From the NCBI GenBank assembly GCA_048938295.1, contig JBHLMI010000001.1, positions 29,449 to 61,448 on the forward strand: 32,000 nt of DNA. The letters run 5' to 3'. The stretch is from Promethearchaeota archaeon (GTDB lineage: Archaea; Asgardarchaeota; Hermodarchaeia; Hermodarchaeales; Hermodarchaeaceae). Of the stretch, positions 1-23,729 are shown one piece after another. Position 1 is the stretch's first letter. Every line of letters begins with the position of its first letter. The position numbers and the translations under genes were made by a program. The notes under the pieces are model-generated. The model did not search any database, was not told the origin of the DNA, and saw only the letters and a list, made by a program, of their open reading frames with translations.

Positions 1-675
1 TTCAAGTGGGACTTGTGTGCCATAGTTAAGACATTGCTTTACCAGTTTCATTGCAATTGGTGCTCGCTCTGCGAGTGTTTGAGCAAAAGCTCTGACCTCC
101 TTGTTGAATGAGTCATCTGCGTATACTCGGTCTACCAACCCGATTTCCAACGCTTCCTCAGCGCTGAATTGTTTTCCTAACAAGATAGCCTCACGGGCTT
201 TTGCCAATCCGATGAGTCGCGGCATCCGTTGGGTTCCTCCCCATGCTGGAATTAACCCTAAATTTACTTCAGTAAATCCAATTTTCGCGCGCTGGGACGC
301 CAAGCGAAAATCACACGCCAAAGCGATTTCACAGCCCCCGCCATATGCATACCCGTTGACTGCGGCTATGACTGGTTGGGGCAACCGATCAATCATCGCT
401 AGCAACTCATGACCCTTGGAGGCAATATATTGGGCATAAAGGGGGGTTACCCCACTCATGAAAACTGACAGGTCGGCACCAGCGGAGAATGCTTTTTCTC
501 CTGCGCCGGTTATTATCAGAACACGAATCTCCTTATCTAGCTCAACCTTTGCCAGCGTTTGCTGAAGCTGAAGGGTGAGTTCCTCATTGATGGTGTTCAG
601 TTTTTCGGGACGATTCAAAATCAGCCAAGCGATCTTTTTTTCTGGTTCTTTTTTTAAAAGGACAGATTCCGTCAT
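1..675 (-). CDS. Enoyl-CoA hydratase/isomerase (crotonase family), 3'-truncated by the window edge; not in the supplied ORF track
   Basis: Manual translation from ATG at 675 (GAGG SD-like motif upstream): MTESVLLKKEPEKKIAWLILNRPEKLNTIN...IITGAGEKAFSAGADL...VIAAVNGYAYGGGCEIALACDFRLAS...FTEVNLGLIPAWGGTQRMPRLIG. Crotonase motifs AGAD, GGGxE and PxxGGTQR with both catalytic Glu; frame open to base 1. Confidence 0.95.
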   Translation of the reverse strand, partial: MTESVLLKKEPEKKIAWLILNRPEKLNTINEELTLQLQQTLAKVELDKEIRVLIITGAGEKAFSAGADLSVFMSGVTPLYAQYIASKGHELLAMIDRLPQPVIAAVNGYAYGGGCEIALACDFRLASQRAKIGFTEVNLGLIPAWGGTQRMPRLIGLAKAREAILLGKQFSAEEALEIGLVDRVYADDSFNKEVRAFAQTLAERAPIAMKLVKQCLNYGTQVPLE

Positions 676-7975: not shown

Positions 7976-10900
7976 ATGCGTAAAAGTAATCTAGCCCTCG
8001 GGCTCTTTCTCGTTTTCTTTCTAGTCCAGTTTATAGTTCCAACCTTTGCTCTACCTAAACAAACCACTTCACCGGAAAGTGGATTGTATACCCAATCCGC
8101 TCCTAGTATACAACCTGCTTCTCCGTCTGGCGATCTCATTATATTGCCAATAGAGGATAATTCACCACCAATACCCGATAATCCCTTTGGAACAGGACGG
8201 GAAACACTTGTAGAGTGGTGGAACACTTCATACGATTATCGACGGAAAATCACAATCGTCGAGCCTAATCTTGCTTCCCGAGCCATGGAACCTGTTCATG
8301 TCTACCTCACCTTTTCACCCAACACGGCTCGGGAAAACATCATCGCAGTCGCTTATTGGGATCTAACAACCTGGCATGAGGTTCCATCCCAAATCTGGAA
8401 TGTCTCTAAAACGGGTAACTATTATGATTCTTGTACAGTTTGTTTCCTTGTCAATATCACTCAGAACCACCAAGAAGTATTCTACCTCTATTATGACGAT
8501 GACCCAATCACACCCCCCTCCTATCCTGACCACATTGATGCCATCCCCACTGATGGTCCTGCAACAGATGATACCATCATGCCCTGGGTCTATTCTGATG
8601 TCACCTCAACGAATTACACTGGTGTTGACACAATCTTCATCCGATCATCAGCCAGCCAATACGAACACTCGGCAATTCTCCTTGTCGACACCCTCCGTGG
8701 GGGGTCTGATTGGGGTGGACCCTGCTGTGGCTTAATCACCGCTCGATATGGTGATGCTGACGCGTTTGATACATCTAACGGCACATCCGCTGATCAATAC
8801 ATGCTATTAGGTGAATTCGCCCTTGATCCATATTTGGTCAATCCAGGAATGGAATCAAATAACCGTGCCAACGTTGCCCCCGATAATCCAGCTGAAGCCT
8901 GGGTCGAAGGGGCGGGTGTATGGATCCTTGATGATGGACCACTCTTCACCCGAATCAAGATTGTCACCAGTGATGGAGGCTACGAAACCAGCTCTTCTAT
9001 TTATCCCTCCGATCCATATCAAGACTCGTACTCGAGGAGCTGGGGAAGCCATGGATTCTTCAACTATACGATTACCTACACCTTCTATTGGCATGGGGAC
9101 AATCTGTTTGTAAAAATACTTCTCGATATTGAAGCTAATCCCCAAGAATCAGGCCAGCAATGTGCCGTTAAAAACTATGGGGACTGGCCGCATATCATGA
9201 CCTTCACCTGCGGGATCGGAACCCCTGGCACTATTGATGCCCTGCAAAACCGCAAATCATGGTATGGTTCCAAATACGGGCTTTACAATGAGACAGTAGA
9301 TGGACGTCGCCGAGACTTTCCCGTTGAGCCCTGGATGACCTGGTATGATAATGCGAGCGGAACTGATCCCTCCGTTGGGCTCATAGCGAAAGTGAATCCT
9401 GTTGGTTGGGAAGTTCTCTCTCTTGCTGTCTCAGGGATGGGAGACAATACTATGTTGCAGCAGATTCTCCGTGAAGGGCATCAAGGGGACTTCTTCGTGA
9501 TGCCAGATGGAGACCATTTCGTCTATGATTATACCTTGTATACCTCAGCCTTTGGCACCAACTTCACCGAAACTCGTTCTCTTTCAATGCAGGTCAATCA
9601 ACCCATTTCGCTAGCACTCGGTGAAGAGGAGTTCTATGCACATAATGTGCTGACATGCACGACTAAGGATGTTGCTGGGACTAGTATCTCGAATGTGGCA
9701 ATCTACGTTTATAATAGTACAAGTCACCTTGTTCGCTCTGGTATAACCGATGTTGCCACAATCGACTTTCTCAAATTACCCTCAGATACCTATACAGTAA
9801 TTTCCAACTATTCTCTCCTATCAACGTATGGTGGAAGCATTACCTTTACCGTAAACACCACAGGTATACTCTTAGATCATACCATCCAACGTGGCTGGTC
9901 CCTTACCATTGAATGCCAGCTAAGTTATGTGACTTTAGAGGTTAGGGACTGGTTTGATGATAGTCTGCTCCCAACATATGCAGAAGTCTTCCTCGATAAC
10001 GCCACATCAACGGATCCCGTTTTTGCATTGAACGCCACCCCTTCCGCTTCAACCTACCTTCCCCCCGATCAATATGATATCAATGTTCGCTACATCAATC
10101 AATTCCGAAATCATAACCAAACAGCCCCGATTATTGTGAGTAGTACTGAAGACACCTATGTAGCAATTGGGATAGTCGCCCAAGAACATCGAACAGAAAT
10201 AGAGCTTAAGGCACCGACAACTGTCCCCTTCGTTGAAGTTCCTTATAATGTAAGCCGAACATTCATTGTCTTTTACAAGGATTCGGATTCAACACCAGCC
10301 GGCCAAGGAATCGATGTAAATGTGACTTCTATTCTTGGTAGTGCGACCTGGACATTATTTAATTCAACAGCAGATATGGTAGATTACGGTAAACTTATCT
10401 CTGTACCCAGTGAGGTTGGTAACTATTCGATGATCTTTGACGCATCGAAATATCTGGTCAACGAGACTTACCAGCTTCGCTTTTTCCTAGATGCCAATGC
10501 ACCTGTTGATTACTGGCAAGCTTTTCTTTCTGTTAGTATTCTCATCCGTGGCCGAGAAGTGCAAATTATTCCTGAGTTTACCTCTCATAGCGTGTTCTGG
10601 AACGGCACTTTCACATTCGCGGTGTATCTTAACGATACAGCAGAAAACCAACCAATTCTTGGTGCAGCACCCCAATATTTTGGGATAGGCTTCTCTGGCA
10701 CTTTACTTCCCAATGGGACGGACGGATGGTATTCAATAACTATCCAAGTCGAGAATCAATCCGTGGGCACCTATACCATCACTATACGCGCTCAAATCGC
10801 CGCCTATGAAGATGCAACATCCCAAATCCTGCTTCTGATCTCCCCTCAACCCACCGAAGCTAATCTTGTCGACGCATACACTCAAAGCATATGGGGCATG

Positions 10901-12163
10901 CGCCAAGCGCCCCTTGACGAGTTATGGGTGCCCATTAATGACCTGCTTGTTTTAACATTCAACTATACTGGGATGAATGGTCAACCGATTCATAATGCAA
11001 CCGGGCAAATCAGCTACATTGTAGGCTACCAAAATATCGTATACATCGGCAATGGCCTCTATCAGGTCGTCATCAATTCAAGCACAGTGCCCATCGGTTC
11101 ATACGCGGCCGCAGCGGGCTTTGGCGGACAAAACTTTGATGTAGCGATTCTGAGTTTCACAATCGAAGTTCGTAATATTCCCACTGCAGTCTATCTTCTT
11201 CATCCCATCCTCAATACAACATTCTATCAACTCAATATCGGTGATCTCTTTCGAGTCCGGATTAACTTCACTGACCTTGCCCACCAGATTCCAATTTCAG
11301 GGGCATCTGTTTACCTTCAAATCTCAGGCATTAACCCTCAGCCCATCCAAATGCTAGAAATCGAACCTGGCGTTTATGAGGCTGTAGGACTTTCCGTCTT
11401 CTTTGAGGGCGTTTGGGAACTCAATATCAATGCTATCATGGATGACCACGAAACAGGAGCCTACAACCTTCAATTAGTCGTACGAACCCCAGAATTTACT
11501 CGAAACGTCATTACCTACGGACTCATTGCCGCCATCATCGGCATCCTCCTCCTCGTCGCTTGGATGGCTTACACTCGAATCTTTGCGATTCCATGGCTGG
11601 TCCGCAAGATGCGGAAAATGTCCACTACCCTTGGCAAAGGAAAGACACCCAAACTGTCCGGTAGCGATCAACGCCGTATCGCCACGCGTCCCGATCAAAT
11701 GACCAATATCATGGAAGATGTCTATGATAGCGCAAAAATCACCTTCGTCGCCACCGCCATCCCCATCGCCCTAGCTGTGGATGAACGCGAAGCCGAAGAG
11801 ATCGATATCTGGCATGAACTCGACCAGCTCGAGGGTCTTGGTCGGGATCAGAAATTGGAGCTCTTCGAAGAAATGAAGCGCATCCCCGCCAAGGACCGCA
11901 TCTGGTTCCTCGAAGACCTCAAACGCCAGATGGCTGATGGCACCCGCTTCCAACGCACGCCAAGAGCCCCTCCTGAAGGGCTCCTGGACACGACAGCAGA
12001 AGAGCAAATCATCCAAGCTCGACTCGATGCCATTCCTGCGCTCAGTGAAAGGGAGAAGAAAACTCTCTTCAAACAGATAAGCAGCCTTGCGCCTGAAGAT
12101 CGCGAAGAGGTCTTCGAAACCCTAAAAGAGCAGTATAAGACGTCTGATGAGGACGAAGAATAG
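7976..12163 (+). CDS. Giant single-pass surface protein 1: signal peptide, DUF2341-like domain, beta-sandwich head, two carboxypeptidase-regulatory-like domains, about 4 Ig-like repeats, TM helix, cytoplasmic helical-repeat tail
   Basis: N-terminal hydrophobic signal; WWNTSYDYRRKITI...FYLYY (DUF2341-like); repeats with YxD...IxGA...GxY; TM GLIAAIIGILLLVAWMAY followed by PWLVRKMRKM; many N-x-S/T sequons; GAGGAG SD upstream. Confidence 0.85.
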   Translation: MRKSNLALGLFLVFFLVQFIVPTFALPKQTTSPESGLYTQSAPSIQPASPSGDLIILPIEDNSPPIPDNPFGTGRETLVEWWNTSYDYRRKITIVEPNLASRAMEPVHVYLTFSPNTARENIIAVAYWDLTTWHEVPSQIWNVSKTGNYYDSCTVCFLVNITQNHQEVFYLYYDDDPITPPSYPDHIDAIPTDGPATDDTIMPWVYSDVTSTNYTGVDTIFIRSSASQYEHSAILLVDTLRGGSDWGGPCCGLITARYGDADAFDTSNGTSADQYMLLGEFALDPYLVNPGMESNNRANVAPDNPAEAWVEGAGVWILDDGPLFTRIKIVTSDGGYETSSSIYPSDPYQDSYSRSWGSHGFFNYTITYTFYWHGDNLFVKILLDIEANPQESGQQCAVKNYGDWPHIMTFTCGIGTPGTIDALQNRKSWYGSKYGLYNETVDGRRRDFPVEPWMTWYDNASGTDPSVGLIAKVNPVGWEVLSLAVSGMGDNTMLQQILREGHQGDFFVMPDGDHFVYDYTLYTSAFGTNFTETRSLSMQVNQPISLALGEEEFYAHNVLTCTTKDVAGTSISNVAIYVYNSTSHLVRSGITDVATIDFLKLPSDTYTVISNYSLLSTYGGSITFTVNTTGILLDHTIQRGWSLTIECQLSYVTLEVRDWFDDSLLPTYAEVFLDNATSTDPVFALNATPSASTYLPPDQYDINVRYINQFRNHNQTAPIIVSSTEDTYVAIGIVAQEHRTEIELKAPTTVPFVEVPYNVSRTFIVFYKDSDSTPAGQGIDVNVTSILGSATWTLFNSTADMVDYGKLISVPSEVGNYSMIFDASKYLVNETYQLRFFLDANAPVDYWQAFLSVSILIRGREVQIIPEFTSHSVFWNGTFTFAVYLNDTAENQPILGAAPQYFGIGFSGTLLPNGTDGWYSITIQVENQSVGTYTITIRAQIAAYEDATSQILLLISPQPTEANLVDAYTQSIWGMRQAPLDELWVPINDLLVLTFNYTGMNGQPIHNATGQISYIVGYQNIVYIGNGLYQVVINSSTVPIGSYAAAAGFGGQNFDVAILSFTIEVRNIPTAVYLLHPILNTTFYQLNIGDLFRVRINFTDLAHQIPISGASVYLQISGINPQPIQMLEIEPGVYEAVGLSVFFEGVWELNINAIMDDHETGAYNLQLVVRTPEFTRNVITYGLIAAIIGILLLVAWMAYTRIFAIPWLVRKMRKMSTTLGKGKTPKLSGSDQRRIATRPDQMTNIMEDVYDSAKITFVATAIPIALAVDEREAEEIDIWHELDQLEGLGRDQKLELFEEMKRIPAKDRIWFLEDLKRQMADGTRFQRTPRAPPEGLLDTTAEEQIIQARLDAIPALSEREKKTLFKQISSLAPEDREEVFETLKEQYKTSDEDEE

Positions 12164-12192
12164 AGAATATCATTCTCGGATTAAGGGTTTAC

Positions 12193-12213
12193 CTACTTTC
12201 AGCATGAAAGTGG
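12193..12213 (+). terminator. Hairpin after surface protein 1
   Basis: CTACTTTCA-GCA-TGAAAGTGG, a 9-bp stem with one G-U pair, 30 nt after the stop. Confidence 0.3.
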
Positions 12214-12362
12214 ATTTAGGATAATAAGTGCGAGATATAAGGTCGGCTTTTTTCAATTAGAAATTTCAGGAAATCTATTTAAATTCCTATCGTGTGTCTA
12301 GCTAAGTGGCTACAGCAGCCTAGCTGACATTGCGCGCCATCAAGTTAATGGAGAGTAATCTA

Positions 12363-15300
12363 ATGAAAATCCGTCCAGTTGCCATTATGGCATTATGTCT
12401 CTTTCTTATTCCACTCCTTCTCCAACCTTTATCCACTCAAGGAATTGACCCCACCCTTGCCCCTAATGCAAGCAAATCATCATCTCCAATGCAACCGGAT
12501 GGAGGACCACCTCCACCAAGTCCTGATTATTCAGGCATTGGAATGGCGCGGAATGTGGCTGAATATGCTAACCGAACGGATGCAGGGCAGAGTCTTCACC
12601 TCATCTATGACAGCTCAGCTAGCATCCGATACAACGACACAGCCCAAGCAGTTCTTCCTCCCGGATGGGAAGGTTACATGCTTGTCACCTATGTGTATGA
12701 CGTAGCAGAGAATCGCTCTTGGGTACTCAATCCCTATTTTGATAATACAGCCCAATATTGGAACGGCATCACGTTTGACGGGGGATCTTGGGTTAACGTC
12801 ATTAGCACAAGCTATGAAGCTAATGGCCATGGTACTGGCAATCCGGCTGTTCGATGCGATATCAATGGTTATGACAGGGGTAGCGGTTGGTACTCCTATG
12901 ATCCTGTCGATTATGCCCGCTGGAATCAAACTATCGCTGTTCCTCCACGCGGACAAGTCCTCTCTGCCTCTATTCAATTTGATTACGCTGTTTGGACCGA
13001 CTCTGGATGGGGGCTAGGACTACCTTTTCAAATTTATATTCGAATAGATGGCACCCAAGTCTATTCAATGGGCTTTGACAATGTCTTGGTTTCTGAACAG
13101 ACCTGGACCAACACCGGGCAACAACCCTTCAACCCCAATGTCATTAATTTAGCAGATGGACTCAATGTGCAAGTGGGACTCCGCTATACCGGAGACAGCG
13201 GGACACGATTTAGCCCCGACCCCCGACCCCGAGCACGTTTTGATAATGTCTTCGTTTATATCAACGCTCTTGTGCTTCCCTCTGATATCAACCTCAAAGT
13301 AAACGGGCTCGATGTCATCGATGATACTTTCGGTTCAGGACAAGTAACCGAAGATCAACTGGCAAGCCCATGGACGACGTCTCCTGTGATAGCTGAAGTT
13401 AATTGGACTTCAACCCCATACCCACCCAATCCTGACATGGATATGGATATCACACTCACAGTTGACACAAACCTGTTCTCACAGAAATTTAGCACAACTC
13501 TCTACGCACAGGATCCCTTTACTTCTGGCACCCAGTTTATCGCTTCAAGTGGACAAAACACGGTCTGGAAGATGTATTATCAACTGGCCTTGCCCACCCT
13601 CTATTGGAATGATCACTTCAACCTCACAATCCCAGATGATTGGAATGTCACCTTCGTCTCTGAACCCCAGCTTCCTACAACAAATACTCTCCATCTCTGC
13701 TATGGTGGAGGCTTAGGAGACGGCTATATTAGCATCCCAACGACTGACATCACAAATAGCCCTGATGGGTACTGGTACATTAAAGCTGAATCCCATAACT
13801 ACGTCGATTCAGCAGAGCTGCAAATTTATGATGGCGGCTGGACTCCCACCTCTGCGATACGGGCTGGCAACACAACCCGCGTACAGGCGAGAATTTTAGA
13901 TGGTTCAAACAATCCACCATCAGGCGTTTCATCCACCCAAGCAAATGTCACCATCTTCGAACCAGGTGGAGGGATATATTATACCGAATTAGTGAATCCC
14001 ACTGCTGCCGGATGGGTGTACACACAAAGCTTCTACAATGATGGCTGGAACACCACTGGAGGCACCTACGCCATCTTTGTAAATTGGGATAATTCCACAG
14101 AAGCTGGTGAAATCAATCTCCAATACACTGTTCGCCACGGAACTAGCCTTACTCCCCGTGAACCCATCATTGAAACCTTCTATGAAGACCAGCCCTTATT
14201 CCCCAAAGTCCGTTACTTAGATGTCGACAGCGATGATTGGTTAGAACCTGCAGCGGTCGTCGAAGGTAACTGGACAACCGGCACGATTAGCTTCCACTAT
14301 GTATCAGGAACTGGTTACTGGGAAGCTGAGATTAACGCTCTTGAAGCCGGCGATGTGGGACAATTTTGGATTCGCGTGAATGCGAGTAAAAGCCATTATG
14401 ATGACGCTTTCTGCTTCATCCTCATTGACGTTGTAGCTGAAACCATAGTTAATTCACCACAAGCCGCAGGCGTCTACGTTCCCTGGCGGGACAATGCAAC
14501 TATCCAAATTGAATATCTCCGGAAAGCTGACAGTATGGGAGTAACCGGCTGTGTACCCTACCTGGAAGTCACTGCAAACTGGACCGCTGGATATTATACC
14601 ATCACTGAGATTGGAAGTGGCTGGTATGAGATTGAGCTGAACAGTACTGGTCCAGGGTCCCTAGGCTCATTCGTACTCAATATCACCATATACAAAGAAC
14701 GGTATCAATTTCAGCAATTCTACATTACTGTCACCGTTCGCGAAATCCTCACCGATCTGGACTTCACCAACCCGACTAATGTCTATTGGAGCCAAAACAC
14801 CAGCATTCCCCTCTTCTACAATGACACTGATCACGGAGGCGTCGGCATTGCCGGGGCACTGGTGACCTGTGACTGGGGAGATGTCTATTATGTTACTGAC
14901 ATGTACGTTCTTACCCTTAGAACCGATAACATCGATATTGGACTTCATACGGTCACTATCACTGTAAGTAAAACGTTCTATAATACCCGCCAAATCATTG
15001 TCCAATTCTACGTTAACCCACTCCCTCTAGACCTGACTGTCACGGTGGCCGATCCCATTAATATTATCTATGGTGAAAACTTCTGGGTTGAAATCTATGT
15101 GGAAACCATCTTCGGTGACCCAGTCACAGATGCTAACGTCACCTTCTCCTGGATCGGAGGTGCTTTCAGCAATACCAGCGGACCTGGAGGCTATTATGGC
15201 ACCTGGTTCTCCTCCTCTTCAGGCACGATTGGTGTTCACTATGTGACCGCCTTTGTCAACCGCACAAATTGTGCTCAAAGCTTTGCATCAGTAGTCGTCA

Positions 15301-17207
15301 ATGTCAAGCAAATTCCCAGTTTCCTCGATACGGTACCACCGGGTCGCTATTCACTGAACTTTACCATTGGATCCGCCTTTAGCCTCCCAGTAAATTATAG
15401 TACCCTACTTGGAAGCCCAGTCCTCGGTGCGGTCGTCACCTACTCCGTTGGAACCCTAAATGGTATTTACTCCGAAATAGGTGGAGGAATCTATAATATC
15501 ACCATTGACACCACCGGATTAATCGCTGGATCCTACACTATCTACGTCACGGCCTCCTCTCCCAACGTTAACTCTCAATCCCGAGCAATTAGCTTGGTCC
15601 TCACCCTACTCCCAGCTGCCCTCGAACCCGAAACTACCACCTATGTTGTCTATTGGGGATTGAACTTCACAGTTAATATTTTCCTCCGAAATCTGTTCAA
15701 CGACACTCCAATCACAGGAGCTACTGTTGAATACTTCTGGGGCCCATACTCGGGAACCATGATCGCGAATGGGACACCCGGATGGTACACAATTACACTA
15801 CCCAGCACAGCTTTTTCATCCGGTTCAGTCTACATCGCAACCTTTGCTGCAAACCCACCCAGTTTTGAATTCGTAGTCAATTCTGCCACCATCTACATCG
15901 AATCACGACCCACTCAACTAGATCTTGTTAACGCCTGGATGTACTTCCCCGAAACTGGTGCAATCACCTGGCTAAACATCTCTGAGCCCTGGACCGTCCC
16001 ACGTAGTGATGTTCTGTACCTTTACTTCAACTACACCGATTATGCCAAGAACACGGTATTAAACGCAATTGGATCATATTCCTGGTTACTGGGAAGCGGA
16101 ACCCTAACTTACGATGACGAAACTGGCTTTTACTATGCGGTAGTCAACATGACTCAGGTTTCACCCGCCAACTACTACCTGGATGTCACATTATCCCGGC
16201 AAAACTATCAAACCGCACAAATCCTACAACTCCCAGTCATCGTCACTTTGGTTCGAACAGAAATCCGAGGAATTCCACAAAACATCCAAGCTGTCACTGG
16301 CACGGCATACACATTTACCATAACCCTTTGGGATCTAGATCATAACACCTCCATTCCTGGTTCCACGGTTACAGTAACAATTCCTCTGGTTACAGATGAA
16401 CATGGCTGGGTTCTCACAGATAACGGGGATGGAACCTATACCCTGCCCTCGGTCACCTTTCCTGGTGAACTCACATATCTCATGGAATTTCGAGCAGAAA
16501 CCGGCTTGATCTATTCTATTGCGATACATCAGGTCAATGTCAATGTAGCCCTTCACCCCATCGTCCAAGCCAGCCTCCGATTGGGTCTAATCGCTGCCAT
16601 AATTGGCATCATTATCCTCATCACCTGGCTTGCCTATACACGGGTGTTTGCCATTCCATGGCTAGTTCGCAAGATGCGGAAAATGTCCACCGACCTAGGC
16701 AAAGGTAAATCAACCCACCTGTCCAACCGTGACATCAACCGCATCGCCACCCGACCCGAATCCATGGAAACCATCTTCGAACCCGCCTACGGCGCTCTCG
16801 GCGTCCCGATAGCCGCCACTGTGTTACCTGCAGCCATCACCATCGAAGAACGGGAAGCCGAAGATGAAATCATTTGGCAGGAACTTGAAAAGCTCGAAGG
16901 CCTTGGCCACGACCAGAAACTCGAGCTCTTCGAAGAAATGAAACGTATCCCTGCCAAAGACCGGGTCTGGTTCCTCGAAGACCTCAAACAACAAATGGCT
17001 GACGGCACCCGCTTCGGACGACTCCCTGCTGAACCGACGCTCGTGCCCGAAGGTGTTGATCCTCGCGTCCACGCACGTCTCCTATCCCTCGAAGCCCTCG
17101 GACCCGCCGAGAAAGACGCTGTCGTCGAACAGCTTCGCGGCCTCTCCAAGGAAGAACAAGAAGAGGTCATCCGCGCCCTCGAAGAAACCGAACGTGGAAA
17201 AGAGTAA
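12363..17207 (+). CDS. Giant single-pass surface protein 2: signal peptide, jelly-roll/CBM-like head in a conserved core, about 8 Ig-like repeats, TM helix, cytoplasmic helical-repeat tail
   Basis: ATG 12363 follows GGAGAG and begins a signal-like MKIRPVAIMALCLFLIPLLL (alternative starts 12330 and 12348). NPYF...W...FDNV jelly-roll hallmarks; roughly 100-aa repeats including DNGDGTY; TM plus PWLVRKMRKM; tail paralogous to gene 1. Confidence 0.85.
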   Translation: MKIRPVAIMALCLFLIPLLLQPLSTQGIDPTLAPNASKSSSPMQPDGGPPPPSPDYSGIGMARNVAEYANRTDAGQSLHLIYDSSASIRYNDTAQAVLPPGWEGYMLVTYVYDVAENRSWVLNPYFDNTAQYWNGITFDGGSWVNVISTSYEANGHGTGNPAVRCDINGYDRGSGWYSYDPVDYARWNQTIAVPPRGQVLSASIQFDYAVWTDSGWGLGLPFQIYIRIDGTQVYSMGFDNVLVSEQTWTNTGQQPFNPNVINLADGLNVQVGLRYTGDSGTRFSPDPRPRARFDNVFVYINALVLPSDINLKVNGLDVIDDTFGSGQVTEDQLASPWTTSPVIAEVNWTSTPYPPNPDMDMDITLTVDTNLFSQKFSTTLYAQDPFTSGTQFIASSGQNTVWKMYYQLALPTLYWNDHFNLTIPDDWNVTFVSEPQLPTTNTLHLCYGGGLGDGYISIPTTDITNSPDGYWYIKAESHNYVDSAELQIYDGGWTPTSAIRAGNTTRVQARILDGSNNPPSGVSSTQANVTIFEPGGGIYYTELVNPTAAGWVYTQSFYNDGWNTTGGTYAIFVNWDNSTEAGEINLQYTVRHGTSLTPREPIIETFYEDQPLFPKVRYLDVDSDDWLEPAAVVEGNWTTGTISFHYVSGTGYWEAEINALEAGDVGQFWIRVNASKSHYDDAFCFILIDVVAETIVNSPQAAGVYVPWRDNATIQIEYLRKADSMGVTGCVPYLEVTANWTAGYYTITEIGSGWYEIELNSTGPGSLGSFVLNITIYKERYQFQQFYITVTVREILTDLDFTNPTNVYWSQNTSIPLFYNDTDHGGVGIAGALVTCDWGDVYYVTDMYVLTLRTDNIDIGLHTVTITVSKTFYNTRQIIVQFYVNPLPLDLTVTVADPINIIYGENFWVEIYVETIFGDPVTDANVTFSWIGGAFSNTSGPGGYYGTWFSSSSGTIGVHYVTAFVNRTNCAQSFASVVVNVKQIPSFLDTVPPGRYSLNFTIGSAFSLPVNYSTLLGSPVLGAVVTYSVGTLNGIYSEIGGGIYNITIDTTGLIAGSYTIYVTASSPNVNSQSRAISLVLTLLPAALEPETTTYVVYWGLNFTVNIFLRNLFNDTPITGATVEYFWGPYSGTMIANGTPGWYTITLPSTAFSSGSVYIATFAANPPSFEFVVNSATIYIESRPTQLDLVNAWMYFPETGAITWLNISEPWTVPRSDVLYLYFNYTDYAKNTVLNAIGSYSWLLGSGTLTYDDETGFYYAVVNMTQVSPANYYLDVTLSRQNYQTAQILQLPVIVTLVRTEIRGIPQNIQAVTGTAYTFTITLWDLDHNTSIPGSTVTVTIPLVTDEHGWVLTDNGDGTYTLPSVTFPGELTYLMEFRAETGLIYSIAIHQVNVNVALHPIVQASLRLGLIAAIIGIIILITWLAYTRVFAIPWLVRKMRKMSTDLGKGKSTHLSNRDINRIATRPESMETIFEPAYGALGVPIAATVLPAAITIEEREAEDEIIWQELEKLEGLGHDQKLELFEEMKRIPAKDRVWFLEDLKQQMADGTRFGRLPAEPTLVPEGVDPRVHARLLSLEALGPAEKDAVVEQLRGLSKEEQEEVIRALEETERGKE

Positions 17208-17215
17208 ACCTCAGC

Positions 17216-17262
17216 TCTAGGGGACCTCTGGTCCCCCCTCGAACCTTTTTAGGCCCCCTAGA
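17216..17262. repeat. GC-rich palindromic element after surface protein 2
   Basis: GGGGACC-TCT-GGTCCCC hairpin (17220-17236), overlapping an alternative 8-bp inverted repeat TCTAGGGG (17216-17223)/CCCCTAGA (17255-17262); T5 at 17246-17250. Confidence 0.5.
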
Positions 17263-17271
17263 AACTGCGCT

Positions 17272-17281
17272 AAACTTTATA
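17272..17281 (+). promoter_or_regulatory. Putative BRE/TATA element for surface protein 3
   Basis: AAACTTTATA, about 150 nt upstream of GTG 17430. Confidence 0.35.
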
Positions 17282-17429
17282 GAACAACACTAGTAGCATC
17301 CCATTCATCCATCTATTCAGCTCTTTTGTCTAGATGGCTCATTTACAAAAAACTCATAAAATCTAGTTGACAATATAATATGATTCAGTAGTAGTTCGGA
17401 CGATTACAGCTGGGTCAAATTGCGGTGAG

Positions 17430-20400
17430 GTGCAGGTTGTGAAGCTAGGCAAACTCGAATTAGCAGTCGTCATATCGTTCTTTTTAGTTATGATACTCTC
17501 CTCTTCAGGGGTTAACCTCCCTCTTGTTGTGAGTGCAGCTCCAGATCCCTATCAGGGATCAGGTGGAGATATTGACATTTATGAGTTTGCTCGCAACGAT
17601 AGCCTTACTTTCAAGAATGGTGTTAATGACACTGCGTTCAGCTACCTGGCTAGCCGGTATCCTTCAAACCCCTCCCCATATTTCGGGTACCGACTCCATA
17701 GCGAAGTAAGCAACCTATTCCAAATCGAAGATCCAGTTCCAAATGGTGAGTTTTCGCAAACGGAGCCAGGAACAGCCTGGGTTGAAACATTAAACACCCG
17801 TGGCCTCGTCGAAGCATGGGGTAATACGACCGGGGGCAACCCCGATGATTGTCTGGAAATTAATCTTGACTTTAAACATGATTTCGATGCTTCTGCAGAA
17901 GCCAATTACGATAATGTGTTTTCCTATACGTCCGATAAACAACCGTTTAACTCCACCCTCGAATTCGATATCAAATATTCCGGGGATATCACAAAGAAAA
18001 CTGAGTTAGAAATCAAGGTTGCCCTCATTTATCATACATCAGAAATTGGGAGCTGGTCCGCAACCACAGACGCCTACCACCCCACAAGCTGGTCTCCTCA
18101 AAGCTTCAGTACCGCACCCGTGAATGGCACAGTAACACTGAGAATCTTCATCATCTACACTGGTGGAAAGAAGAACGACTTGGACGGAAACGTCTATTTC
18201 GATAACTTCCAGTATCGAATTTTGACGCAACGTAGCCCCACTGAAGTGTCCCTCACCCTAAATAACACCGCTTTTCTCGATACAGGCATTGCTCAAGGCC
18301 ACGTTGACGTTTACGCCGATACTCCGAACAAGGAACAAGCTCTCATCGGTAACTGTTGGTCAACTACCCAACTCTTTCAATTCTATTCCTCACACGAGTT
18401 AGCCTTCGACTATTCATATTCGATGTATATCAAAACAGAAAACACCGATGCTGCTTCCACCACCTTCACTGCCCCCGTGGACACAGATCCCACATGGGAA
18501 ATTACCTACACCACTCCCTCACCACTACCACCAACCGGCTATAGTGGATACACCTTTGGGCTATTTCTTCAAACGGGCTGGTTTCTCACCTCAGTTGAAA
18601 ACGACACAGGAGACACAATCTCTGAGTATGAATTTAACATTACCAGCCGATTCATTTGGCTAGATGAGGGGATCGCTGGTCCAAACGAGGATTTCTCGAT
18701 TTTTGCCTCAAGCACTAACTATGTACAGGCCATTTATCCTCAAATCAGCGCAACAGGAACTGGAGGCTGGACAAACCTCTCATCAGGTGAATACTACGTC
18801 AAAGGCGATTATCTGCGCATCATGGCCAAAATCCAAACCTTAGACCCAGTCACCAACATCGCCAATATCACTGTATTCTTCCCCAATGATACCAAGTGGC
18901 AGAGTGATGCCACCCCGGACTTCTTTCTCGCAAATGATACGATAGTTAGCGCGCCTTGGCTGGTTTCCTCGATTGATCCCATTGATGCTGGAAGCGAATG
19001 GCACGTTACTGTTTCCTATAACTCCCCAAATCAATGCGGAATGCGAGAACAAGCGATTTCCATCGTCATTGAAACCACCGCTACCAAAGTCACTCCACCT
19101 GATGGTACCCGCGTTATTTCTGGCGACACCGTGACAGTTGAAGTGTTCTGGGAAAATCTAGACACAAGTGCACCAATCACTGATGCAACGGCCCGTATCC
19201 GCTATCTAGACCGTAACATGCAAGTCCAAACCGTCGGCATGACCGCCGATGGCCTAGGAGGTTATTCTTTGATCTATTTTTCCACCAGTCTAATGCGACC
19301 CAGTACCACAGCCACATTCGGCGTTGAACTCTTCCGATATGGGTACGTTAACGCCAGCTACAGTGAGGGCACCCAAATAGACTTCACAATCAATCTTGTC
19401 AATAATATCAACTATGTGATGATCAAACCTACCCAACAAACCGGTCCAGATGAATTCACCGCAGAAACCTCCCGATCCCAGGGATATACTACCCTTGTCA
19501 AATTCTATGATCCCTTCCAATCCGCCTATGTGCTGAACGAGACGTCTCTATGGCCAAAGGTGCTGGTACAATTTGACTACTACGAAGATACGGGTTCAGG
19601 ATTCGGCTCATCTCTGTATTCGGGCAGTTTCAGCGAAAATGCCACAACACGCACTTTCTACAAAGATGAAACCTTTGGCCCAACCGTTCAACGTGTGAAG
19701 TACGTAGTTACGATGCGAATTGAAGACGCCTCCTGGGAATTTGAACAACAAAATTTCACGATAATTATTAACGTCGTCTCGTGGGCGACAAATCTGGATG
19801 CAGTTCGGACAAGTATCGCCTATCCACCATCTGGTACAGGTGATGGCTGGACTGCGTATAATAACGTCACAGACACTTATGAAGTGCATTTGTATTGGGA
19901 TGAGAGCTTCACCATCACCGTCTATTACGAGAACCTCAGCAGCATTCCTACTCCAGAAGGAATTGAATCGGCAACCGTCAGAATTCTAATCGACGAAACC
20001 CTGTATCCGCTAACGGAAATGGGTAACGGGAACTATTCGTATACCCTCAATACGAATTCCTATTCTGTTGGCATCTTGGATTTGTATGTGAATGCCACCT
20101 TTCTTGATCATGCATCACAGACGATTCGCATTCGCCTAATCATTAATGCACGTACCACTCAACTGGTGAGTGATTATCTTCCCACCACCAAGGATATTCC
20201 TTATGATAGCGATTTCTCGGTGCTATTCACATTCACTGATGAAGTCTCATCCTCAGTTCCAATCACAAACGCCGTGGTGTCAGTAACTGGATACGTTTCA
20301 GGTAAATATTCCATCACCAATCATGGTGATGGCACCTATACGATCACATTTGAGGGGGATATCACAGAAGGAGCCTATTACGTTACGATTTTGTTTGAAC

Positions 20401-23400
20401 GGACCAATTATGCAAGCAAGTCCAAATACTATGAGATTACCGTACGTCCAATTCATACCGGCAGCTGGGCCTCGGCGGAAAATCCGTCCGTTCCATGGGG
20501 CACCACAGTTGTCATTACCCTGCAGTATAATGATACAGATAACGGGTCTCTGGGCATTCCTGGAGCAACAATCGCGTTCTCCTGGATGGATAACATTGAA
20601 GGCGTTGACTATTGGCTAACAGATAACAGCGATGGCACATATACGATTACCTTAGCCACATCCAAGGTGGCTTATGGAACTCAAGGCTATACTGTTTCGT
20701 TCACGCTATCGAAAACCCATTATGACTCTGACCAAATCGACGTATCATTTCAGGTGCGCGACATTCTCACCACACTGTTCATCGTCGACACGCTTGTCAT
20801 GGGAACAACCACAACCTCTGTGCCTTGGGGTGAAACGCTTACCCTTATTCTGCATTTCAATGATACTGAAAATGGCCTACACATCCCAGCTGCGAGTATT
20901 TCCTGTAACTGGGATCCAGGCTATTGGGACGTCATTTACAATGGCACCGACCACGCATATTATCTGACAATCTATACTGATAACACCATTGAGGGTGGCC
21001 ACGTAATCCAAATCTATGCATCAAAAATCCATTACGTCAATGGGTTTAATATCCAAAGCTTTGTCGTTCGAGAAATTCAAACCAGCCTTTCTGCTATCCC
21101 CTCCTACGTTGCTTCTTGGCCCTGGGGAGATAATCTTACGATCCAACTCACCTACCAAGATTTAGATCATGGCGGTACTTTCATTCCCTACGCTACTACC
21201 ACAACTGATTGGAATGCTGGATTTTACACCTTCTATGATTATGGTAACGGAACCTACCTGTTGGTGCTGAATACTACCTGCCGAGTCATTGGTCAACATT
21301 CTATTCAAATCACACTCAGTGAATCACTTCTAAGCCCACATTATGCAGAAAGAACACTGACCCTTTTAGTAAAGCTTGATCCCATTCCGCTTATCGTTAC
21401 AGTTCAAAGTCCACCCGGTGGTCAAAATATAACCAGCTATAACGATCTTCAAATCCTAACCGTAAATGTCACCGACCACCTCGGTCGGCCCATAAACGAT
21501 GCCACCACCGTCTACGAATGGGCAGGCCGCAATAATGTAACCATGACGTTCCTTGGAAACGGAATATACACATTTTCCTTTTTGGCAAATGCAACGCCAG
21601 GAAGTTGGATTGTTACCATCATAGCATCGAATTTACCTAATTATCGCGATGGTTCATCCTCTATTGTTTTAACAATTAAAGCAACTGAGACGAAGCTTGT
21701 TGCCATCACCTTAACCCCTGTCAATGCGGTGGCCAATACGAGTTTCATTTTTACTGTGAATTTTACCACGCTCAATGGTCAACCCATTGAAGGTGCTGTT
21801 GTCACATTCTCGTTAGGTCCACACAATGGCTTCCTATTAGCTATTAGTCCAGGAATCTACGAGGCTACAATCCCCACAACCAACCTAGGCGCTGGCCAAT
21901 ACACGCTTTATGTCAGCGCAAGTAAAGCTACAATGGAAACCAAATGGAATGAATTCCCTGTCTTTCTTACCAAGATTCCTTGTAGCCTTGAACCCGAAGT
22001 ATCTTTTCTGAACGTAGACTGGGGTCATAACTTCACAATCAATGTGTACTTCAATGACACCCACAATAACCTCCCTATTGATGCCGCAAATATCATCTAC
22101 AACTGGGAAACTCTAAACGGCTCACTCGTCGCAAACGGAACTGCAGGTTGGTACACCATCACGCTCCCCAGCACTGTTTATCCTGCGGACTCCTTCTATT
22201 CGGTAACCTTCACTGTAGACCACGCAGGCTATCAGTACAGCCTTGCTGTTGTGACAGTAAACATTCGCCGGCAAAGCACTGACTTAGTGCTCACCCAAGC
22301 AGAAGCCCATTACCAAACCATCACTCGACAACTCAATACCACCCCCTGGGACATACCCTGGAGCGACACCTTAGTCTTATCCTTCAATTATACCGACGGA
22401 GATGGAATCAGTATAGCCAATGCCATCGGAGCCTATACCTGGGAATTAGGCTCAGGTACCCTCCAATTCATCGAAGGTCTCTATGTATGTCAAATCAATT
22501 TTACTGGGGTAAGTGGTATCTACGGGCTGCAAGTTATTATTAGCAAACAAAACTACGATAAAGGCATATCTGAAATTTACACATTAAATATAACCAGATC
22601 CCTGACTGAAATAGCCTTTATTGAAGGGCCTCCCCCCACAGTAACAGCCGGAACCCCTTTCCAAATCACAATCCGTGTTACCGATTACTATCATAATCGT
22701 TCTATCCCAGGTGCCAATGTTTCTGTTGAGATACTTGAATATGGTCAACATTTCACTATGTACGACAACCAAGATGGTACATACTCAATCATGTTAACCC
22801 TCCCTCAACCTAATGTCTATCATCTCATGTTTTATGTTGAAGTGGATGTTCGGTTCGAAACTGGACGGTTGGGTCCAATTCAGGTTGTGGCTCTTACTAG
22901 TCCAATCATACAGAATACCATCAACGGAGCTGCAATAATCGCTGTTATTGGAATTATTGTCATCGCTGTCTGGTTTGCGTACACGCGGGTTTTCTCGGTA
23001 CCTTGGCTCGTTCGAAAGATGCGGAAAATGTCACAGGCAATTGGTAAAGGTCGAACTCCCAGTTTGTCCAAGGTTGATGTTGCGAAAATTACTAGTCGAC
23101 CTGATCTATTACACGACATGACAACGCCTGCCTACCGAAGTATTGGTCTCGCAGCCAGCACAATCGTAATTCCTGTTGAAATCGATTGGGCTGAAAAAGA
23201 AGCCGAAGATGAGGCTATTTGGTCAGAACTGAAAAACCTGCCGTTCATCGAATATGCGCAGAAATTAGAGCTCTTTCAGCAAATGAAGCAGCTTCCCCCT
23301 GGTGAACGTGTATGGTTTATCGAAGATCTCCGGAAACAAATGACCGATGGAACCCGATTTGATCGGAAGTCAAAGGAGCCCGAAATTAGCGAAGATTTAG

Positions 23401-23729
23401 AAAAACTATTGCGGGCCCGGTTAGCCCTATTCCCTGCCCTAAGTGACCTTGAAAAAACCCGAATTGCGGCGCAGCTGCGAAAAATGCCCAAAGAGGACTG
23501 GGACGAAATCTTTGACACTCTCGCCATTTCTCAGGTCTCTAGGGAAGACCTTGAGCCAGAGATTCTCCGTCCTGATGAATTCCCGTCACTCACAGAGGAA
23601 GAACGTCGAAAGATACTGGAACAAATTGAGGGTTTGACTGACGAAGAACGCGAAAAAGTACTCAAAACCTTCCGTGAAAAACACGATAAACCCAAATCGA
23701 AAGGGAAGAAAGAGGAAACGAAGGATTAG
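17430..23729 (+). CDS. Giant single-pass surface protein 3: signal peptide, jelly-roll/CBM-like head in a conserved core, about 12 Ig-like repeats, TM helix, cytoplasmic tail with 3 helical repeats
   Basis: NGEF...W...YFDNF hallmarks; repeats with DNSDGTY, NHGDGTY, DNQDGTY and YGNGTY turns; TM AAIIAVIGIIVIAVWFAY plus PWLVRKMRKM; collinear with protein 2. Confidence 0.85.
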   Translation: MQVVKLGKLELAVVISFFLVMILSSSGVNLPLVVSAAPDPYQGSGGDIDIYEFARNDSLTFKNGVNDTAFSYLASRYPSNPSPYFGYRLHSEVSNLFQIEDPVPNGEFSQTEPGTAWVETLNTRGLVEAWGNTTGGNPDDCLEINLDFKHDFDASAEANYDNVFSYTSDKQPFNSTLEFDIKYSGDITKKTELEIKVALIYHTSEIGSWSATTDAYHPTSWSPQSFSTAPVNGTVTLRIFIIYTGGKKNDLDGNVYFDNFQYRILTQRSPTEVSLTLNNTAFLDTGIAQGHVDVYADTPNKEQALIGNCWSTTQLFQFYSSHELAFDYSYSMYIKTENTDAASTTFTAPVDTDPTWEITYTTPSPLPPTGYSGYTFGLFLQTGWFLTSVENDTGDTISEYEFNITSRFIWLDEGIAGPNEDFSIFASSTNYVQAIYPQISATGTGGWTNLSSGEYYVKGDYLRIMAKIQTLDPVTNIANITVFFPNDTKWQSDATPDFFLANDTIVSAPWLVSSIDPIDAGSEWHVTVSYNSPNQCGMREQAISIVIETTATKVTPPDGTRVISGDTVTVEVFWENLDTSAPITDATARIRYLDRNMQVQTVGMTADGLGGYSLIYFSTSLMRPSTTATFGVELFRYGYVNASYSEGTQIDFTINLVNNINYVMIKPTQQTGPDEFTAETSRSQGYTTLVKFYDPFQSAYVLNETSLWPKVLVQFDYYEDTGSGFGSSLYSGSFSENATTRTFYKDETFGPTVQRVKYVVTMRIEDASWEFEQQNFTIIINVVSWATNLDAVRTSIAYPPSGTGDGWTAYNNVTDTYEVHLYWDESFTITVYYENLSSIPTPEGIESATVRILIDETLYPLTEMGNGNYSYTLNTNSYSVGILDLYVNATFLDHASQTIRIRLIINARTTQLVSDYLPTTKDIPYDSDFSVLFTFTDEVSSSVPITNAVVSVTGYVSGKYSITNHGDGTYTITFEGDITEGAYYVTILFERTNYASKSKYYEITVRPIHTGSWASAENPSVPWGTTVVITLQYNDTDNGSLGIPGATIAFSWMDNIEGVDYWLTDNSDGTYTITLATSKVAYGTQGYTVSFTLSKTHYDSDQIDVSFQVRDILTTLFIVDTLVMGTTTTSVPWGETLTLILHFNDTENGLHIPAASISCNWDPGYWDVIYNGTDHAYYLTIYTDNTIEGGHVIQIYASKIHYVNGFNIQSFVVREIQTSLSAIPSYVASWPWGDNLTIQLTYQDLDHGGTFIPYATTTTDWNAGFYTFYDYGNGTYLLVLNTTCRVIGQHSIQITLSESLLSPHYAERTLTLLVKLDPIPLIVTVQSPPGGQNITSYNDLQILTVNVTDHLGRPINDATTVYEWAGRNNVTMTFLGNGIYTFSFLANATPGSWIVTIIASNLPNYRDGSSSIVLTIKATETKLVAITLTPVNAVANTSFIFTVNFTTLNGQPIEGAVVTFSLGPHNGFLLAISPGIYEATIPTTNLGAGQYTLYVSASKATMETKWNEFPVFLTKIPCSLEPEVSFLNVDWGHNFTINVYFNDTHNNLPIDAANIIYNWETLNGSLVANGTAGWYTITLPSTVYPADSFYSVTFTVDHAGYQYSLAVVTVNIRRQSTDLVLTQAEAHYQTITRQLNTTPWDIPWSDTLVLSFNYTDGDGISIANAIGAYTWELGSGTLQFIEGLYVCQINFTGVSGIYGLQVIISKQNYDKGISEIYTLNITRSLTEIAFIEGPPPTVTAGTPFQITIRVTDYYHNRSIPGANVSVEILEYGQHFTMYDNQDGTYSIMLTLPQPNVYHLMFYVEVDVRFETGRLGPIQVVALTSPIIQNTINGAAIIAVIGIIVIAVWFAYTRVFSVPWLVRKMRKMSQAIGKGRTPSLSKVDVAKITSRPDLLHDMTTPAYRSIGLAASTIVIPVEIDWAEKEAEDEAIWSELKNLPFIEYAQKLELFQQMKQLPPGERVWFIEDLRKQMTDGTRFDRKSKEPEISEDLEKLLRARLALFPALSDLEKTRIAAQLRKMPKEDWDEIFDTLAISQVSREDLEPEILRPDEFPSLTEEERRKILEQIEGLTDEEREKVLKTFREKHDKPKSKGKKEETKD

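Follow-up and report, generated by a model that had tools for sequence, protein, structure and literature searches.

The window analysed here, a stretch of 32,000 nucleotides from contig JBHLMI010000001.1 of a Promethearchaeota archaeon (Hermodarchaeaceae), holds three long open reading frames (ORFs) on the + strand, arranged head to tail. Each of them ends in a tail that carries copies of a small helical unit, and this unit, above all its first copy (unit A), is the subject of the present work. A first reading made from the letters of the window (the sequence-only reading) had described it as an unnamed cytoplasmic repeat. Genes and tail elements lie at the following window positions.

7976..12163, + strand: gene 1 (P0001, 1395 amino acids), predicted giant type-I surface protein with a sequon-rich ectodomain and one C-terminal transmembrane (TM) helix
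11501..11569, + strand: gene 1 C-terminal TM helix, residues 1176-1198 (approximate; from hydropathy and alignment)
11570..11692, + strand: gene 1 basic juxtamembrane block (YTRIFAIPWLVRKMRKMS..GKGKTP..), residues 1199-1239 (from alignment)
11795..11929, + strand: gene 1 unit A, 45-column core, residues 1274-1318 (unit hidden Markov model (HMM), E 5e-20)
11999..12133, + strand: gene 1 unit B, residues 1342-1386 (unit HMM, E 5e-17)
12330..17207, + strand: gene 2 (P0002, 1625 amino acids as listed)
16557..16634, + strand: gene 2 C-terminal TM helix, residues 1410-1435 (approximate; from hydropathy)
16635..16757, + strand: gene 2 basic juxtamembrane block, residues 1436-1476 (from alignment and model)
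16860..16994, + strand: gene 2 unit A, residues 1511-1555 (unit HMM, structure models)
17055..17189, + strand: gene 2 unit B, residues 1576-1620 (unit HMM, structure model)
17430..23729, + strand: gene 3 (P0003, 2099 amino acids), predicted giant type-I surface protein with Invasin_D3/Big_1-like immunoglobulin (Ig) repeats
22905..22979, + strand: gene 3 C-terminal TM helix, residues 1826-1850 (approximate; from hydropathy)
22980..23102, + strand: gene 3 basic juxtamembrane block, residues 1851-1891 (from alignment)
23205..23339, + strand: gene 3 unit A, residues 1926-1970 (unit HMM, E 7e-18)
23400..23528, + strand: gene 3 unit B, residues 1991-2033 (unit HMM, E 3e-13)
23574..23678, + strand: gene 3 third unit, residues 2049-2083 (unit HMM, model positions 10-44 only)

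Repeat units and layout of the tails

Proteins 1-3 have two hydrophobic segments each, one N-terminal and one C-terminal; in protein 1 the signal or anchor segment covers residues 3-28. Every ectodomain contains 29-43 N-x-S/T sequons and the tails contain none. The tails are 182-242 amino acids long (189 in protein 1), lack cysteine and carry a net charge of about +9 in the segment that adjoins the TM helix. Because of the hydrophobic segments, the restriction of sequons to the region outside the tail and the basic cluster after the TM helix, the tails are predicted to be cytoplasmic, in agreement with the sequence-only reading, and the proteins to be type-I single-pass, receptor-like surface proteins. 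Ig-like Pfam matches (Invasin_D3, Big_1) in the ectodomains of proteins 2 and 3 are weak. As the database form of protein 2 (P0004) has 1614 amino acids and starts 11 codons downstream of the listed TTG (window 12330-12363), translation of gene 2 probably begins with the ATG at 12363 and not with the TTG at 12330.

The earlier reading had placed unit A, extended to 48 residues, at 11807-11950, 16872-17015 and 23217-23360. In-frame translation of these segments gives IWHELDQLEGLG...DGTRF, IWQELEKLEGLG...DGTRF and IWSELKNLPFIE...DGTRF for proteins 1, 2 and 3, and the identities that had been counted, 42/48 between proteins 1 and 2 and 27/48 between 1 and 3, are exact; proteins 2 and 3 share 28/48. 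Genes 1 and 2 have 28 of these codons in common; the others comprise 14 synonymous and 6 non-synonymous differences. The combined unit HMM recovers the copy numbers described before (2, 2 and 3 in proteins 1, 2 and 3), including the partial third unit of protein 3. The latter, which is kept in the orthologues P0032, P0044 and P0047, lacks helix 1. Most tails of the family contain 2 units; 3 are present in some and 5 in two Thorarchaeota-labelled proteins, giving an overall range of 1-5.

To compare the units with each other we used an alignment of 51 tails, taken from the window's genome, related genomes and the protein database. The unit A and unit B profiles align by hhalign over 45 columns with no gap (probability 97%, E 1.2e-10), in keeping with the gap-free units reported earlier, and neither profile aligns to the juxtamembrane block, which served as a control. 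Among the six-frame ORFs of the window's genome, an HMM built from unit A only detects unit B (E 4e-4 and 5e-3) and one built from unit B only detects unit A (E 2.5e-7). By these profile comparisons, units A and B are to be regarded as true homologous repeats and not as chance likenesses. Unit B is much more divergent, as had been noticed: paralogues are 38/40/35% identical in unit B versus 84/55/61% in unit A.

The units belong to a larger conserved block made of the juxtamembrane helix, a spacer of fixed length and unit A, a block that the sequence-only reading missed, as it missed the wide spread of the family in Asgard archaea. The spacer between juxtamembrane block and unit A measures 28-30 amino acids in 51/51 tails. 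The linker between units A and B ranges from 13 to 95 amino acids in the same tails and is proline-rich in some paralogues. Net charge is +8.7 for the juxtamembrane block, -5.7 for unit A and -3.4 for unit B.

A 19-residue sub-repeat, half of a unit, is weakly detectable within the units (hhalign probability 78% over 15 columns). Four proteins that by their appearance look bacterial (P0176, P0178, P0186 and P0194) contain long arrays of a helical repeat of about 18 residues, 'L..MSPEE...L', which match half of the unit with E from 1e-11 to 3e-5. The half-unit self-match and the matches to the 18-residue repeat hint that the unit may stem from a duplicated helix-cap motif. The few bacterial matches of the unit ('MSPEER'-type repeats with a period of about 18 residues, covering part of a unit) are probably analogous.

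Constraint and predicted structure

Constraint was measured by region in nine same-genus orthologues of protein 2, the ectodomain being represented by its last ~490 residues. The mean rate of non-synonymous substitution (dN) is lowest, among all regions compared, in unit A (0.041); it is 0.096 in unit B, 0.099 in the juxtamembrane block, 0.17-0.20 in the TM helix and the two linkers, and 0.44 in the ectodomain. The synonymous rate (dS) of unit A is 0.76 versus 1.3-1.6 in the rest of the tail (window 16842-17009, 56 codons, gene 2 with orthologues L006-L015). This low value could come from sampling noise over 56 codons, from nucleotide-level constraint or from exchange between copies.

Among the paralogues of the window, synonymous sites are near saturation throughout, the proportion of differing synonymous sites (pS) being 0.5-0.97. 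For unit A of genes 1 and 2, pS is 0.54, similar to that of the juxtamembrane block and unit B, and the proportion of differing non-synonymous sites (pN) is 0.10; these two genes are 84% identical in unit A and 28% identical in the adjacent ectodomain. Recent gene conversion as the source of the identity between paralogues is rejected, as pS is no lower in unit A than in the flanking blocks. For the same reason the high identity of unit A is best read, at the level of the codons, as the result of old purifying selection and not of recent copying. The sequence-only reading had reached this view from the synonymous differences between genes 1 and 2, and the values of pS, pN and dN uphold it.

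The presumed core of the 45-column unit consists of nine positions (5, 9, 15, 23, 27, 30, 38, 39 and 42) at which, in unit A as in unit B, at least 80% of the sequences have a hydrophobic residue. In 36 related tails, 15/36 non-core positions are at least 90% identical in unit A versus 6/36 in unit B. These counts fit the conserved surface that a small interaction or oligomerisation domain, as proposed in the sequence-only reading, would need; that the surface binds something is what we infer. The same reading had pointed to exposed Trp and Phe residues as a binding surface, which holds for one kind of residue only. The Trp residues of unit A (positions 6 and 37) occupy sites that are polar in unit B, and they are replaced in Thorarchaeota-type tails. 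The Phe of 'RVWF' sits at core position 38, in a column that is invariant in both tail alignments and hydrophobic in A and B, and so does not belong to such a surface.

A model of the whole tail was obtained with AlphaFold2 from the 51-sequence alignment, and is given here in the numbering of the protein 2 tail. Its mean predicted local distance difference test score (pLDDT) is 73.6 and its predicted TM-score (pTM) 0.30. Juxtamembrane helices are modelled at tail residues 9-22, 31-36 and 40-53, with pLDDT of about 90 at residues 11-30 and a lower value, about 71, at 41-50; unit A has helices at residues 71-86, 92-104 and 107-123 and unit B at 143-151, 157-167 and 172-189 (both of gene 2). Modelled alone from 112 sequences, unit A gives three helices, at 3-19, 25-36 and 40-56, with pLDDT 80 and pTM 0.61. 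Each unit is thus predicted to fold as a separate acidic three-helix bundle of about 45 residues with up-down-up topology, that is, as a folded and not a disordered element. Since the linkers have pLDDT below 50 and the whole tail has a pTM of 0.30, the models suggest beads on a flexible string and not a continuous helical solenoid. In the single-chain model the units pack neither on each other nor on the juxtamembrane helix. Co-folding of two copies of the region of units A and B gave a score of 0.00 without controls, which counts neither for nor against self-association.

Foldseek searches with the whole-tail model against PDB, AFDB clusters and ESM Atlas, together with a language-model atlas search, returned nothing usable. 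With the model of unit A, Foldseek (PDB and Swiss-Prot AFDB) and VIA-align returned generic three-helix bundles and the RecR N-terminus only, with a VIA-align Z of at most 6.7 and a Foldseek E of at least 2.2. These matches include the B/Z domains of protein A, BibA, Embp, the streptococcal beta protein and the X domain of paramyxovirus P; one CUE chain appears at Z 4.6 amid generic bundles in VIA-align. Structures of MgtE, FliG, SAM, UBA and ET are not among the Foldseek and VIA-align matches listed, an absence that excludes no fold.

Likeness to known families and distribution in Asgard archaea

No Pfam family scores above its cut-off in the three tails of the window and NCBIfam gives no match, so the unit remains unnamed, as the sequence-only reading had it, with nothing in Pfam passing on its own. 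Sub-threshold Pfam matches do recur among the 51 tails: BET in 18, YqbF_HeH in 18, HAAS in 15, DUF3106 in 13, MgtE_N in 6 and FliG_M in 2. The loose resemblance to MgtE-N/FliG repeats or SAM-like helices suggested earlier is not sustained by these scattered matches. MgtE_N (PF03448) finds nothing in the window tails at E up to 10, and its best sub-threshold value among the 6/51 family tails is 0.082. Moreover, MgtE proteins combine a superhelix with CBS and MgtE domains, and the present units, on linkers of 13-95 amino acids, go with a single TM helix and an Ig-like ectodomain, with no CBS or MgtE domain. FliG_M does not match the window tails either (best E 0.017 in 2/51 tails). The sole SAM_1 match (PF00536) has E 0.016 and 16 bits against a cut-off of 23, and it falls at residues 705-743, in the ectodomain of protein 1; a SAM domain has five helices in about 65 residues and the present unit three in about 45. 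The 25 Pfam families listed for the 51 tails include neither UBA nor CUE, and the matches of the window tails do not include them either. UBA/CUE bundles have a conserved hydrophobic loop, MGF/Y or MFP; the loop between helix 1 and helix 2 of the units reads EGLG, P.LS or KGMS.

The BET/ET domain (PF17035) comes closest to its cut-off. The proteins of the window reach 16-18.2 bits against 24.5, protein 3 having the 18.2 bits, and two orthologues of protein 3 reach 26.2-26.3 bits by summing matches to half of the profile (positions 2-36 of 64), none of which passes by itself. Like the units, the ET domain of BRD2/3/4 is a small acidic helical bundle, and the pattern 'S..EK..L...I..L..E' is common to it and to unit B and the third unit. 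The peptides that ET domains bind are short and basic-hydrophobic, similar in pattern to the RKMRKM block of the tail itself. However, ET is a nuclear eukaryotic domain, and only the first half of its profile is matched, through sums over repeats.

By shape, the nearest analogues are the three-helix modules of Gram-positive surface proteins. The B/Z domains of protein A superpose on the unit A model with TM-scores of 0.55-0.70 and a root-mean-square deviation of 2.2-3.3 Å over 50-58 residues, and protein A-type and related Gram-positive adhesin modules reach a VIA-align Z of 5.9-6.7. Profile searches of PDB sequences yield nothing significant, as the top match, to staphylococcal protein A repeats, has E 0.006 and none of its stretches passes by itself; the Pfam B family (PF02216) stays below its cut-off (17.3 bits against 27, E 0.005) and matches in one distant tail only. 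Protein A B/Z, GA/FIVAR of Embp/Ebh, the BibA N-domain and the beta protein are all up-down-up bundles of about 50-58 residues, arranged as tandem beads and binding ligands, and the passage from helix 1 through the loop to helix 2 reads 'L..LP.L.EEQR.AF' in protein A and 'L..L.GL...QK.ELF' in the present unit. Unlike these modules, which are extracellular, bacterial and bind host proteins, the present units are cytoplasmic by prediction, archaeal and acidic. As far as the models go, the likeness is one of fold and not a demonstrated homology. The most fitting description of the unit is that of a three-helix bundle which is protein-A-like in shape and forms, by its sequence, an unnamed family. 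We found no description of the tail in the literature.

Close homologues carry the database labels Promethearchaeota, Hermodarchaeia/-ota, Thorarchaeota and Hodarchaeota. When 400 genomes of the phylum were searched with the profile, strong matches, with E below 1e-23, came from 18/18 genomes of the window's family, from nearly every genome of a second large family (about 3-3.7 Mb, its relatives in the protein database being labelled Thorarchaeota) and from one small family. Weaker matches (E 1e-6 to 1e-15) occur in six or more further families. Where weak matches were inspected, the proteins follow the same plan: the ectodomain is sequon-rich and Ig-like, and a TM helix and a basic juxtamembrane segment precede one or two units. 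Searching 1.84 billion representative proteins with the profile gave only 166 matches, nearly all of them C-termini of proteins of 1,000-5,500 amino acids or fragments of such proteins. In the window's genome, units and juxtamembrane block occur in only five giant ORFs, the three described here and two adjacent ones on another contig. The tail therefore seems restricted, as far as these searches of sequence go, to Asgard archaea, and there almost entirely to the C-termini of giant glycoprotein-like type-I surface proteins.

One of the weak-match tails comes from a closed Asgard genome of 1.4 Mb (L041, G001:C1:207443-210631). Its ectodomain has a head motif, 'MLQQILREGHQGD...YTSAFG.N(F/Y)TE.RS', in common with protein 1 (window ~9400-9600), and at the C-terminus of the protein a basic juxtamembrane segment precedes a single unit. 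Because the head motif is that of protein 1, the lineage of gene 1 would predate the Hermod/Thor clade.

Soluble proteins carrying the unit, which the sequence-only reading had proposed to look for as candidate adaptors, did not turn up in the window's genome or in the library of 1.84 billion proteins. A thymidine/AMP-phosphorylase-like ORF of the window's genome, whose N-terminal helical domain matches at E 0.006, was judged a chance match. Three short metagenome proteins (P0170, P0175 and P0183), in which unrelated N-termini, one phosphoesterase-like and one MogA-like, are joined to tail fragments, look like chimeras of assembly or gene calling.

A fused form of the unit is found in another Asgard family, which we call f9. 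Its tail consists of a TM helix, a short basic segment, a cytoplasmic module of about 230 residues, one unit and a Lys-rich helical end (for example L042, G182:C123:16162-19374, an ORF on the - strand; also L044-L049). The whole f9 tail is conserved at 45-60% identity in ~40/61 sampled genomes of the family, and the unit HMM matches 6/6 copies examined with E from 3e-13 to 4e-5. Since a single unit is kept in this tail after the 230-residue module, the unit is a reusable building block of Asgard surface-protein tails. Pfam gave no match in the f9 module or in its small homologues, and a longin/roadblock plus winged helix label was not confirmed. In the window's genome four other surface proteins end in the f9-type module and have no three-helix units. 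Two small ORFs, G000:C51:14580-15227 and G000:C4:22979-23638, encode homologues of the module with 216 and 220 amino acids (phmmer E 9e-11 and 7e-7). Such module tails share overall layout, phylum and the window's genome with the tails of the window, but the window's three tails lack the module entirely.

G000:C6:41325-45491: surface protein with the f9-type module
G000:C9:49977-52250: surface protein with the f9-type module
G000:C50:14545-17310: surface protein with the f9-type module
G000:C46:22670-26866: surface protein with the f9-type module
L050:1581-2231, + strand: small ORF homologous to the f9 module
L051:1477-2139, - strand: small ORF homologous to the f9 module

The genes that flank the three giants in the window are metabolic: an enoyl-CoA hydratase, a nitroreductase-like gene, an ADP-forming acyl-CoA synthetase and a thiolase. 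Conserved neighbours that could be partner candidates were found neither in the window nor on two other contigs. The two remaining giants of the window's genome lie in tandem on contig C64 (L052, G000:C64:1-12000). One is cut by the start of the contig and the other has 2917 amino acids; their linker between units A and B is Pro-rich and about 70 residues long. Genes of the same families as those downstream of them (CoA-ligase-like and ODP/flavodoxin) also adjoin the homologue on L036.

Possible roles of the unit

The unit represents an undescribed, Asgard-restricted cytoplasmic domain family of common fold. From the gradient of constraint, the invariant non-core residues and the fixed distance to the membrane, we infer that a single cytoplasmic partner, shared by the paralogues, docks on unit A and that the later units add avidity; we give this proposal, the existence of the partner included, about an even chance of being correct. 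In such a tail, the TM helix would be followed by basic juxtamembrane short helices, probably lying on the inner face of the membrane, and the spacer of 28-30 residues would hold unit A at a fixed distance from it. Unit A would dock the partner, and unit B and any further units, on their variable linkers, would add avidity or secondary sites. In this way, ectodomains that have diverged almost beyond recognition could be linked to one and the same machinery inside the cell.

Tails of eukaryotic adhesion receptors may serve as a working analogy for such a function. Integrin beta and cadherin proteins also join a large variable ectodomain, a single TM helix and a basic juxtamembrane segment to a short conserved tail that is common to paralogues. 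However, they have no relation to the present tails in sequence or fold, and they use linear motifs such as NPxY and not repeated folded bundles. A narrower version of the docking proposal, in which unit A recruits a soluble eukaryote-like regulator, with the small homologues of the f9 module as candidates, or a cytoskeletal protein, we consider quite unlikely. The small homologues are candidate partners only, as homology is no evidence of binding.

Several points weigh against docking. Gene neighbourhoods are heterogeneous and mostly metabolic and offer no candidate partner, and no soluble carrier of the unit was found that would hint at a network. Strong conservation of so small a domain could reflect a constraint on folding or stability, or contact with its own juxtamembrane helix, and part of it might be nucleotide-level or come from conversion, given the lower dS among orthologues. 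The fold matches of the model lend no functional weight, because their scores lie below what helical bundles reach by chance.

Some of the same observations could be explained by self-association. The acidic bundles could bind each other or the basic helices of neighbouring molecules and so gather the giants laterally into patches or a coat. The charges of juxtamembrane block and units are opposite and conserved, the tandem paralogues have almost the same unit A, and a copy number that varies from 1 to 5 is what clustering driven by avidity would predict. Yet the single-chain model, with its pTM of 0.30, packs units neither together nor against the juxtamembrane helix, and electrostatics by itself would not call for 15 non-core residues of mixed chemistry to be invariant; we think that clustering is fairly unlikely. 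A role in biogenesis or sorting, with no signalling from the surface, seems to us improbable to a like degree. Here the tail would be recognised while these proteins are inserted into the membrane or afterwards, for instance to target such long Sec substrates, to retain them or to bring them to protrusions. Its confinement to very large secreted and anchored proteins, the fixed geometry of the block next to the membrane and the great diversity of the ectodomains served would all suit such a signal. On the other hand, other giants of the same genome have a different tail, which argues against a general requirement for export, and signals of this type are usually short linear motifs and not repeated folded domains.

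It could also be thought that the units are passive acidic spacers, a stable charged filler without a specific ligand whose effect is to hold the C-terminus in solution or to repel the membrane, as their generic fold, high content of Glu, Asp and Lys, and variable linkers might indicate. We regard this as very unlikely, because dN is lower in unit A than anywhere else in the protein, many of its non-core residues are invariant and its spacing from the membrane is fixed within 2 residues across two families. Membership, much diverged, in a known small helical family (BET/ET, UBA/CUE, HeH/SAP or the ARM-like repeats of MgtE-N or FliG) is in our opinion the most unlikely explanation. It would account for the recurrent sub-threshold Pfam matches, for the two protein 3 orthologues above the BET cut-off and for the CUE chain among the fold matches. 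However, the BET scores are sums of half-profiles, and no UBA, CUE, SAM, MgtE or FliG structure stands among the top fold matches. The strong negative charge of the units contradicts DNA-binding HeH/SAP, and their flexible linkers are unlike the superhelices of MgtE-N or FliG.

In summary, the unit family marks a large set of giant surface proteins, whose most conserved element is the first copy, and it would provide a useful domain model for annotating the surface giants of Asgard archaea. Unit A, with about 60 amino acids (about 130 together with the juxtamembrane block), is a small, soluble and easily expressed bait for an internal partner. If no partner exists, the unit would be just another small helical spacer. 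Should the partner turn out to regulate GTPases or to be part of the cytoskeleton, the tails would bear on the pre-eukaryotic origin of receptor-like signalling and adhesion coupling.

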